This document shows, piece after piece, positions 62,841 through 62,923 of a stretch of 64,000 bases of DNA. The DNA lies in NCBI GenBank assembly GCA_964596525.1, contig CAZQUL010000001.1:396830-460829 (forward strand), given 5' to 3'. Positions within the stretch are counted from its first letter, which is position 1. The number at the start of each line of letters is the position of its first letter. Below the pieces are notes generated by a model. That model worked only from the letters and a program-made list of their open reading frames with translations, had not been told where the DNA came from and ran no database searches. Both the position numbers and the translations under genes were made by a program. The DNA is from an uncultured Gammaproteobacteria bacterium (GTDB lineage Bacteria; Patescibacteriota; Patescibacteriia; Magasanikbacterales; GWA2-37-8).

Positions 62841-62923
62841 GTCATTGCGAGCCTGCCTACCGCAGGCAGGCTTGTCTGTCGTTAGACAGGGAGGGACCCG
62901 CCGCGGTGGGTTCTCGCAATGAC
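62841..62923 (+). mobile_element. 83-nt palindromic element, copy 3 (variant core, same TIRs)
   Basis: CGTCATTGCGAG...CTCGCAATGAC termini. Three internal hairpins (GCCTGCCTACCGCAGGCAGGC, GTCTGTCGTTAGACAGG, ACCCGCCGCGGTGGGT). Confidence 0.6.

Follow-up and report, generated by a model that had tools for sequence, protein, structure and literature searches.

A probable divergent member of a widespread family of nested palindromic repeats between an epimerase gene and rpoB in Patescibacteria

A 64,000-nucleotide stretch of Patescibacteria DNA (the window) carries, in the spacer between an epimerase gene and rpoB, a compact and highly structured sequence whose ends recur at ileS. The question raised by this locus is whether the sequence, here called copy C, belongs with the two copies at ileS (copies A and B) and what kind of element the three represent. 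A sequence-only reading proposed that copy C is the third member of a modular family with terminal inverted repeats, in which the termini are the conserved unit and may serve as recognition sites for a trans-acting transposase.

The 11-mer GTCATTGCGAG is found exactly at 62841-62851 on the plus strand and at 62913-62923 on the minus strand, with further exact sites at 34751/34857 and 35641/35747, and the perfect termini GTCATTGCGAG/CTCGCAATGAC bound exactly three elements in the window. When one mismatch is allowed, seven matches are obtained against 1.6 expected, a number reached by none of 100 shuffles; at two mismatches nothing more stands out in the window. In the family the complementarity of the termini continues one base outward, as a flanking pyrimidine and purine, and the real unit is therefore 62840-62924, with C at 62840 and A at 62924. 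It reads CGTC-ATTGCGAG...CTCGCAAT-GACA on the plus strand and TGTC-ATTGCGAG... on the minus strand. The features are as follows.

62840-62924: copy C, whole element with its flanking tag bases, an 85-base palindrome delimited by termini, flanks and covariance model
62841-62851, plus strand: left terminus GTCATTGCGAG, the tag GTC followed by an 8-nt stem arm starting AT
62850-62858 and 62864-62872: hairpin H1, AGCCTGCCT / AGGCAGGCT, a perfect 9-bp stem with a 5-nt loop
62875-62880 and 62885-62890: hairpin H2, TCTGTC / GACAGG, six pairs including one T-G, with a 4-nt loop
62894-62901 and 62906-62913: hairpin H3, GGACCCGC / GTGGGTTC, with G-T pairs, around a CCGCGG palindrome
62913-62923, plus strand: right terminus CTCGCAATGAC, the perfect reverse complement of the left one, with which it forms the outer stem P1
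34750-34868: copy A, canonical with one mismatch in the left inner arm (CCAATC), 51.1 bits
35640-35758: copy B, canonical, inside ileS (34879-37914), 58.7 bits

The scores in these lines come from a covariance model of the family, built from 80 members and run over the whole window with its filters off. Copies A, B and C are the only elements found in the window by the model: copy C scores 31.7 and 27.0 bits on its two strands, about half the value of copies A and B, and the next best match reaches 11.6 bits (E 0.7). The exact 11-mers and the model therefore agree with the proposal of a third member of one family defined by its termini. The tags differ among the three: copy A carries TGTC on both strands, copy B TGTC on the plus and CGTC on the minus strand, and copy C CGTC on the plus and TGTC on the minus strand. 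The interior of copy C measures 61 nt, that of copies A and B 95 nt.

Copy C is co-oriented with its flanking genes. It begins 11 nt past the last stop-codon base of a 292-aa open reading frame (61951-62829), whose product is assigned by Pfam to the RmlD/NAD-epimerase family, and rpoB lies approximately 400 nt downstream, its start being placed at 63324 by way of the gene call in a contig of the same lineage (L121). The placement given earlier, after a short-chain dehydrogenase/reductase (SDR) gene and before rpoB, is thus correct. The low-GC island described there is a modest one: GC content is indeed lower over 60-63 kb, at 0.45-0.48, against mostly 0.47-0.57 and typically about 0.52 elsewhere in the window. 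Upstream of the epimerase gene are genes for a DinB-family protein and for a 365-aa protein without Pfam match, and a tRNA-Glu gene. The three protein genes form a slightly low-GC block (60085-62829) placed between tRNA-Glu (59925-59997, minus strand) and copy C. In the three relatives examined this block is missing upstream of rpoB, and an FtsK gene or, in L251, an unannotated 676-aa open reading frame is present instead. No integrase or att-like repeats were found bounding the block. The N-terminus of RpoB has its best named relatives in Candidatus Magasanikbacteria (about 70-73% identity), which places the lineage in the Patescibacteria. A search for an empty site returned other contigs with the epimerase gene that are all identical and uninformative, and relatives with 73-81% identity in rpoB have different upstream neighbours and spacers that cannot be aligned with the copy C locus.

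The two other copies (117 nt each, 34751-34867 and 35641-35757) lie around and inside ileS, are 90% identical to one another and bracket the start of the gene together with its first 254 codons. Copy A ends 11 nt before the ileS ATG at 34879. Copy B accounts for 117 nt, or 39 codons, in frame within the editing-domain region (VIASEAKQ...RPRND). Because solved IleS sequences, for example 8c9d, align contiguously across this site and the 39 residues have no counterpart in them, the alignment clearly points to copy B as an insertion. A duplicated IleS segment around copy B was considered and rejected: YVIAK/YVVAK is native and the same pseudo-repeat occurs in solved IleS structures. The native codons for YVIAK (35617-35627) read GTCATTGCGAA, a one-mismatch copy of the element terminus that precedes copy B by 13 nt (24 nt between the starts), and the 10 nt to the left of copies A and B are alike (TTTATCTGGT and TTTTTCCAGT). 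Both likenesses could reflect a target preference or coincidence.

In its DNA fold the plus strand of copy C forms an outer stem closing three hairpins, with an energy of -25.9 kcal/mol (z -5.2); the minus strand reaches -25.3 kcal/mol (z -5.9). As RNA the element folds at -59.6 kcal/mol (z -6.9) and its opposite strand at -56.6 kcal/mol (z -7.3). The minus strand as DNA and the RNA folds favour a rod-like alternative. The three hairpins that had been described as perfect are all present in the plus-strand DNA fold, but only H1 is perfect, as H2 contains a T-G pair and H3 contains G-T pairs. H1 directly follows the trinucleotide GAG, where other members (L016, L064 and L147) have a variable GC-rich side hairpin. 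H2 stands where canonical members have the inner arms GCAATCC...GGATTGC, which copy C lacks, and H3 is the side hairpin of its right-hand module. On each strand copy C therefore retains the tag, the 8-bp AT-stem, GAG and then a GC-rich hairpin in the usual side-hairpin position of the family, and on both strands the GCAAT arm and the tail are missing.

How unusual this is can be gauged from the remaining elements. None of 433 others truly lacks both inner arms, the two strict exceptions being point mutants. Both GCAAT and ATTGC are held inside 252 of the 285 elements with exact termini from genomes and metagenomes, and the two that have neither carry the mutated arms GCAAGCC and GCAAACC; in the 148 elements from viral contigs there is no case with both arms missing. 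As the inner arms are kept in 88-89% of other copies, copy C is the exception and not the rule. The statement that the termini are the conserved unit holds in so far as they are the most conserved part, but the inner arms are kept as well. The 61-nt core of copy C finds no counterpart elsewhere in the window, nor in family loci totalling about 3 Mb. Given that tags, stem and side hairpins are kept and the inner arms are replaced by an unrelated hairpin, copy C is a genuine but atypical family member, probably a rearranged or decaying copy.

The family extends far beyond the window. A scan with the two termini at a spacing of 40-70 nt, applied to one genome per species, together with scans of metagenomes and viral contigs, recovered the terminus pair at a minimum of 120 loci in each of the three collections; a scan of plasmids covered six records only. 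The genome matches are distributed over Alphaproteobacteria (Bradyrhizobium, Sphingomonadales, Rickettsiales), Gamma- and Deltaproteobacteria, Bacteroidota, Chloroflexota, Planctomycetota, Cyanobacteria, Zixibacteria, Margulisbacteria and one Clostridiaceae MAG (Firmicutes), and four Patescibacteria MAGs carry the family among the genome loci listed. The spread thus covers more than 10 phyla, including the lineage of the window. The sequence-only reading would have been contradicted by a lack of further copies and termini matching by chance; copies are present in every collection scanned. At least 120 viral or proviral contigs from IMG/VR (L252-L371) contain canonical copies with the same terminus pattern, one of which (L362) also has an Ssn-like open reading frame, and phages may have aided the dispersal of a near-identical repeat across many phyla.

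In the canonical anatomy the outer stem carries the tag (Y-GTC-ATTGCGAG), the inner arms (GCAATCC.../...GGATTGC) are conserved and the side hairpins vary. From the outside inwards the outer stem is followed by GAG, a variable insert and the inner arms (consensus CG-A/T-A/G-GCAATC-C/T... and ...GATTGC...CG) around a variable loop. The insert frequently takes the form of a GAA-loop mini-hairpin (GCGAAGC, CCGCGAAGCGG, CCACGAAGTGG) or of a longer GC-rich one. Among 129 copies from other genomes, the base at position -1 is C (67%) or T (27%) in 94%, and the base at +1 is G (73%) or A (25%) in 98%. The three columns after GCAATC vary yet remain complementary, which amounts to covariation of the inner-stem extension: changes on both sides are seen in 73 cells, against 23 in column shuffles, and pairing holds in 97.8% of cells, compared with 30-42% after sliding of the partner. 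In the other elements the inner arms are a median of 26 nt apart, and whole elements have a median length of 84 nt. In the family alignment side hairpins and loops vary freely and the tagged termini are the most conserved part, which bears out the earlier notion of a modular family. As to location, 33% of family copies lie within 30 nt after the 3' end of an open reading frame, against 2.7% of random positions, and 17% are inside long open reading frames.

Half units, consisting of a terminus and a GCAATC arm without partner, also occur alone. At L062 (2729-2790), L076, L133, L139 and L149 solo half units adjoin full elements and tandem partial 5' ends are seen (GTCATTGCGAG/A/C every 15-35 nt), which look like the result of repeated abortive copying, or of nicking and repair at the tag. 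The GAA-loop mini-hairpins, which occupy columns 14-41 and 90-117 of one alignment (A2), have covarying stems of 2-4 bp (GC/GC, GGC/GCC, CCGC/GCGG, CCAC/GTGG) and are of the d(GCGAAGC) type, a DNA hairpin known to be unusually stable. In the window other simple CGTC-type hairpins are not found above chance.

Two described groups of repeats come close to this family. The CGTC-tagged REP superfamily, with families CGTC-1 to -4, has an unpaired tag CGTC or TGTC (also CCTC), a stem of 8-9 bp starting AT, a loop of 4-5 nt and a CCA tail; its members often form inverted pairs able to fold into one large hairpin, lie less than 20 bp after open reading frame ends and include intragenic copies, among others in tRNA synthetase genes, as well as dRS3, RPE-4 and RPE-6 (Di Nocera, De Gregorio and Rocco 2013, PMC3733652). 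That study encountered no transposase gene with CGTC repeats on its flanks and called the repeats 'orphans' (PMC3733652). The present family, compared with CGTC-1 to -4 by their written descriptions, agrees with them in several respects. Copy C has the tag CGTC/TGTC and an 8-bp stem with an AT start (ATTGCGAG / CTCGCAAT); units are paired in opposite orientation and can fold into one large hairpin; copies are found after open reading frame ends (11 nt in the case of copy C) and in frame in a tRNA synthetase gene (copy B); and canonical copies start with C/T-GTC-ATTGC and in the majority have a GCAAT-CCA(G) tail. Unlike in CGTC-tagged REPs, the 'loop' is structured and 50-100 nt long instead of 4-5 nt, the tag GTC pairs with GAC of the opposite end, the Y/R bases at -1/+1 are mostly complementary, and copy C lacks a CCA tail on either strand. 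As in Rickettsia palindromic elements (RPE), palindromic repeats lie in frame in essential genes, as copy B does in ileS, and the family is present in Rickettsiales MAGs (L024, L081, L102 and L107). The peptide motifs of copy B-type insertions presumably resemble those of Rickettsia palindromic elements.

The second group is exemplified by the Neisseria NTS/dRS3 hairpin, CGTCATTCCCGCG..GCGGGAATCYRG, given as CGTCATTCCCGCGMAVGCGGGAATCYRG, which lies on both sides of the small GIY-YIG gene ssnA (Chenal et al. 2025, PMC11893778). SsnA recognizes the hairpin in single-stranded DNA only, with cleavage a few bases upstream; the loop is replaceable or can be split, and the C after the palindrome mattered most for binding in Neisseria. 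Thousands of Ssn homologs are flanked by their own Ssn-related motifs (SRM); site-specific single-strand cleavage 5' of the hairpin is established for two pairs only, those of Neisseria and Wolbachia (PMC11893778). In a literature search the exact termini of the present family matched primers only, and the related NTS string GTCATTCCCGC matches Chenal et al. 2025. The family shares with SRM/NTS a 5' CGTCATT... start with an AT-initiated palindrome, an ...AATCCAG tail in canonical copies, the architecture of repeat, nuclease gene and repeat, a partner that is a single-domain GIY-YIG protein of about 95 aa, and hundreds of dispersed copies in many phyla. It differs in that its elements, 75-120 nt long, are nested double units tagged on each strand, whereas NTS are single 28-nt hairpins, and copy C is without the inner arm and tail. 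The layout of copies A and B, repeat, gene segment and repeat, recalls the NTS-gene-NTS configuration. The published SRM pattern, HGTCWYN(0-2)YYVSBRHN(0-5)WNVSBRGN(0-2)RNCYNB, matches NTS but neither the consensus forms of the family nor copy C, and gives no match in the window. As the pattern misses this class, surveys that use it undercount such motifs. A repeat on both sides of Ssn genes, as expected of SRM, is found for the family elsewhere and not in the window.

The link with a nuclease rests on metagenome loci. An approximate query for GIY-YIG proteins retrieved approximately 8000 real PF01541 proteins of about 95 aa, and three PF01541 protein loci are flanked by classical CGTC hairpins, for instance CGTCATGGCCGTG-CTTGT-CACGGCCATCCACG. 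A pattern requiring a terminus and, 16-46 nt later, the reverse complement of the C-terminal motif NPxWxDL then yielded at least 120 metagenome loci. An Ssn-like GIY-YIG open reading frame was detected with phmmer in 117 of 120 of these pattern-selected loci, ending 3-25 nt before the element, an adjacency that the pattern itself imposes on the downstream side. The upstream side is unconstrained, and here the association is strong: the terminus is present in 85 of 99 upstream intervals of 330 nt (86%) and in 16 of 811 distal ones more than 1.5 kb away (2%). Between the upstream terminus and the point where the GIY-YIG alignment begins, the median distance is 42 nt, and a complete exact element stands upstream at 51 of 105 loci.

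The flanked open reading frames encode single-domain proteins of about 95 aa whose sole Pfam match is GIY-YIG (PF01541). Their identity to alphaproteobacterial homologs, which in turn have classical CGTC hairpins on their flanks, is 59%, and they share the motif REKQIK-G/A-GSR..K..LIE..NP.W.DLY. On the Pfam hit, the size and this level of identity they appear to be of the Ssn type (CDD family cd10448), and with the motif REKQIK-G/A-GSR they form a sister group to the alphaproteobacterial type. The family is thus the cognate repeat that flanks the genes of one subgroup of Ssn-type nucleases. With this as the recurrent flanked gene, a GIY-YIG single-strand nuclease, and not an IS200/RAYT transposase, is the most likely trans-acting partner; the trans-acting protein invoked by the sequence-only reading remains the best explanation, but the IS200/IS605- or RAYT-like gene that was to accompany it does not. 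With several queries, no Ssn-like gene was detected in the window (64 kb) or at the 120 genome loci listed, no Ssn-type gene was found in Patescibacteria, the protein search having its matches in Anaerolineales, and none of the Ssn loci fetched resembles the window in its proteins. An all-against-all comparison of neighbour proteins near 131 genome copies returned only translated repeats and common families as recurrent.

At four loci (L147, L247, L150 and L134) cassettes of element, nuclease and element are accompanied by long direct duplications of host DNA; in L147 and L134 at least 18 nt over the start of the downstream gene (ATGAAACTCGGACG.CTC) stand on both sides of the cassette. Sequences of 9 nt or longer are shared across the cassette at 5 of 36 loci, compared with 14 of 701 shuffled pairings, which hints that the cassette inserts as a unit. 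Many database entries for these small nucleases (among them P0002, P0003, P0011, P0024, P0030 and P0031) have N-terminal extensions, such as MAGLGPAIHVFF and ...KPGHDGG..., which apparently are the translated upstream hairpin repeat and so appear to be gene-calling artefacts.

Taken together, copy C probably belongs, as a non-coding and divergent member, to a very widespread family of nested palindromic repeats of the CGTC-tagged REP and Ssn-related-motif kind. Elsewhere this repeat flanks genes for small GIY-YIG single-strand nucleases, and copy C is therefore best seen as a variant of a known repeat and not as a new system. The family unit is a tag (C/T-GTC) followed by a stem starting AT, and full elements have one such unit per strand, so that the ends pair as an outer stem of 11-12 bp. 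By analogy with the Neisseria SsnA/NTS pair, the mobility and function of the copies in the window may be pictured as follows. Whenever the DNA becomes single-stranded, in replication, uptake or repair, each strand of the element might fold as the Neisseria NTS does, and a cognate Ssn-type nuclease might bind this tagged stem and introduce a nick a few bases to its 5' side, as SsnA does with NTS. Such nicking could drive or limit the spread of the repeat and modulate recombination; it could underlie copying of the repeat, or the restriction of incoming or recombining single strands. Copy C retains, on both strands, just the parts that this recognition would be expected to need, namely tag, AT-stem and adjacent side hairpin. 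SsnA tolerates replacement of the loop; being without the inner arms and without the C after the palindrome that mattered most for SsnA binding, however, copy C perhaps no longer is a substrate. The copy would be tolerated in the 3' flank of the epimerase gene, and as a by-product the epimerase transcript might end in, or run through, a very stable 3' hairpin.

Other explanations have to be weighed against this one. Copy C could act mainly as RNA, at the 3' end of the epimerase transcript, where it would stop or stabilize the mRNA and insulate the low-GC island from rpoB. The RNA fold of -59.6 kcal/mol is strong, the element is co-oriented with its neighbours at 11 nt from a stop codon, family copies are markedly enriched right after open reading frame ends, and Di Nocera et al. 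argue that many such repeats are RNA hairpins (PMC3733652). However, the opposite strand folds equally well (z -7.3), as expected for a DNA palindrome rather than for a strand-specific RNA; no T-run follows the stem (the next sequence is AAAGGTTTTGTC) and Rfam offers no matching family; the family is also located inside ileS and at its 5' end, where a terminator would harm; and the conserved tag and the nuclease association would be left without explanation. As the main role of copy C this is unlikely, but as a side effect it is compatible with the repeat interpretation and could coexist with it. Three candidate classes were rejected on annotation: copy C is not called as a tRNA by ARAGORN, searches of Rfam at gathering thresholds over the whole window and permissively around the three copies gave nothing relevant, and a scan for terminators and promoters does not call copy C as an intrinsic terminator.

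A MITE or REP moved by a DDE, IS200/IS605 or RAYT transposase reading the terminal inverted repeats was the class suggested by the sequence-only reading, and perfect terminal inverted repeats in a dispersed multi-copy family do invite it. REP/RAYT is an established precedent for short palindromic repeats: like the present family these are tagged, dispersed hairpins, often in inverted pairs, with a single-copy enzyme gene between repeats, and some element-nuclease-element cassettes with long host duplications point to insertion events. Yet direct duplications of 2-5 nt are at or below chance in 129 copies, and without a target-site duplication copy C is no classical TIR or MITE element. Its tag is CGTC/TGTC and not the GTAG of RAYT-associated REPs, RAYT being an HUH tyrosine transposase; approximate queries found no RAYT- or Y1 transposase-like open reading frame in the window or in the genome loci listed; no recurrent transposase family is present near 131 elements; no transposase gene was found flanked by CGTC repeats (Di Nocera et al., PMC3733652); and the recurrent neighbour is a GIY-YIG nuclease. 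A transposase of these types is accordingly very improbable. A chance palindrome, or an unrelated structured gene such as a tRNA-like cloverleaf or a small RNA that happens to share the 11-mers, draws on the unique interior of copy C, unmatched in the family loci, and on a four-way-junction shape that superficially resembles a cloverleaf. It is scarcely credible, as an 11-mer followed by its reverse complement within 150 nt has a probability of about 4e-5 (150/4^11) and this occurs three times, and the flanking Y/R bases and the layout of GAG plus side hairpin fit the family.

A bolder extension of the repeat interpretation holds that GTCATTGCGAG elements are non-autonomous partners of a mobile unit, a 'CGTC-REPtron', whose enzyme is a GIY-YIG single-strand nuclease and which operates in different phyla, the reduced Patescibacteria genomes among them, where it inserts in frame into essential genes such as ileS. 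This is a speculative and rather doubtful proposal. If it were true, copy C would show that a tag and an 8-bp AT-stem per strand suffice and that any structured cargo is tolerated, and Ssn nucleases would be a new class of hairpin-directed transposition or copying enzymes.

The copy C locus itself acquires little meaning from all this, as it holds one more selfish-looking repeat copy in an intergenic spacer, and the kind of element is already known: with CGTC-tagged REPs and Ssn-related motifs described, the family is a variant, the arm-less copy C especially so. The wider point is that a repeat almost unchanged across more than 10 phyla, previously without an assigned enzyme, is now tied to a subgroup of Ssn-type GIY-YIG nucleases. 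In gene calling and annotation such elements are to be expected, both as spurious peptides and as in-frame insertions, of which the 39 additional residues of IleS are an example.

Some minor observations concern rpoB and its surroundings in related Patescibacteria. The gene is called as two open reading frames in the closest relatives found (4917-5753 and 5814-8345 in L249; 6001-6933 and 6921-9428 in L250), encoding 278 or 310 aa and about 840 aa with the break after the Rpb2_2 domain, and as one open reading frame of more than 1040 aa in L121, from the lineage of the window. In L249 the rpoB leader (about 4300-4420) contains a different long GC-rich palindrome (..CCCCTTCTGCGGAAGGGGAGAG..CCCTCCCTTCCGCAGAAGGGAGGG..), and a partial right half of the GTCATTGCGAG family is found at about 9111-9153 of the same contig.
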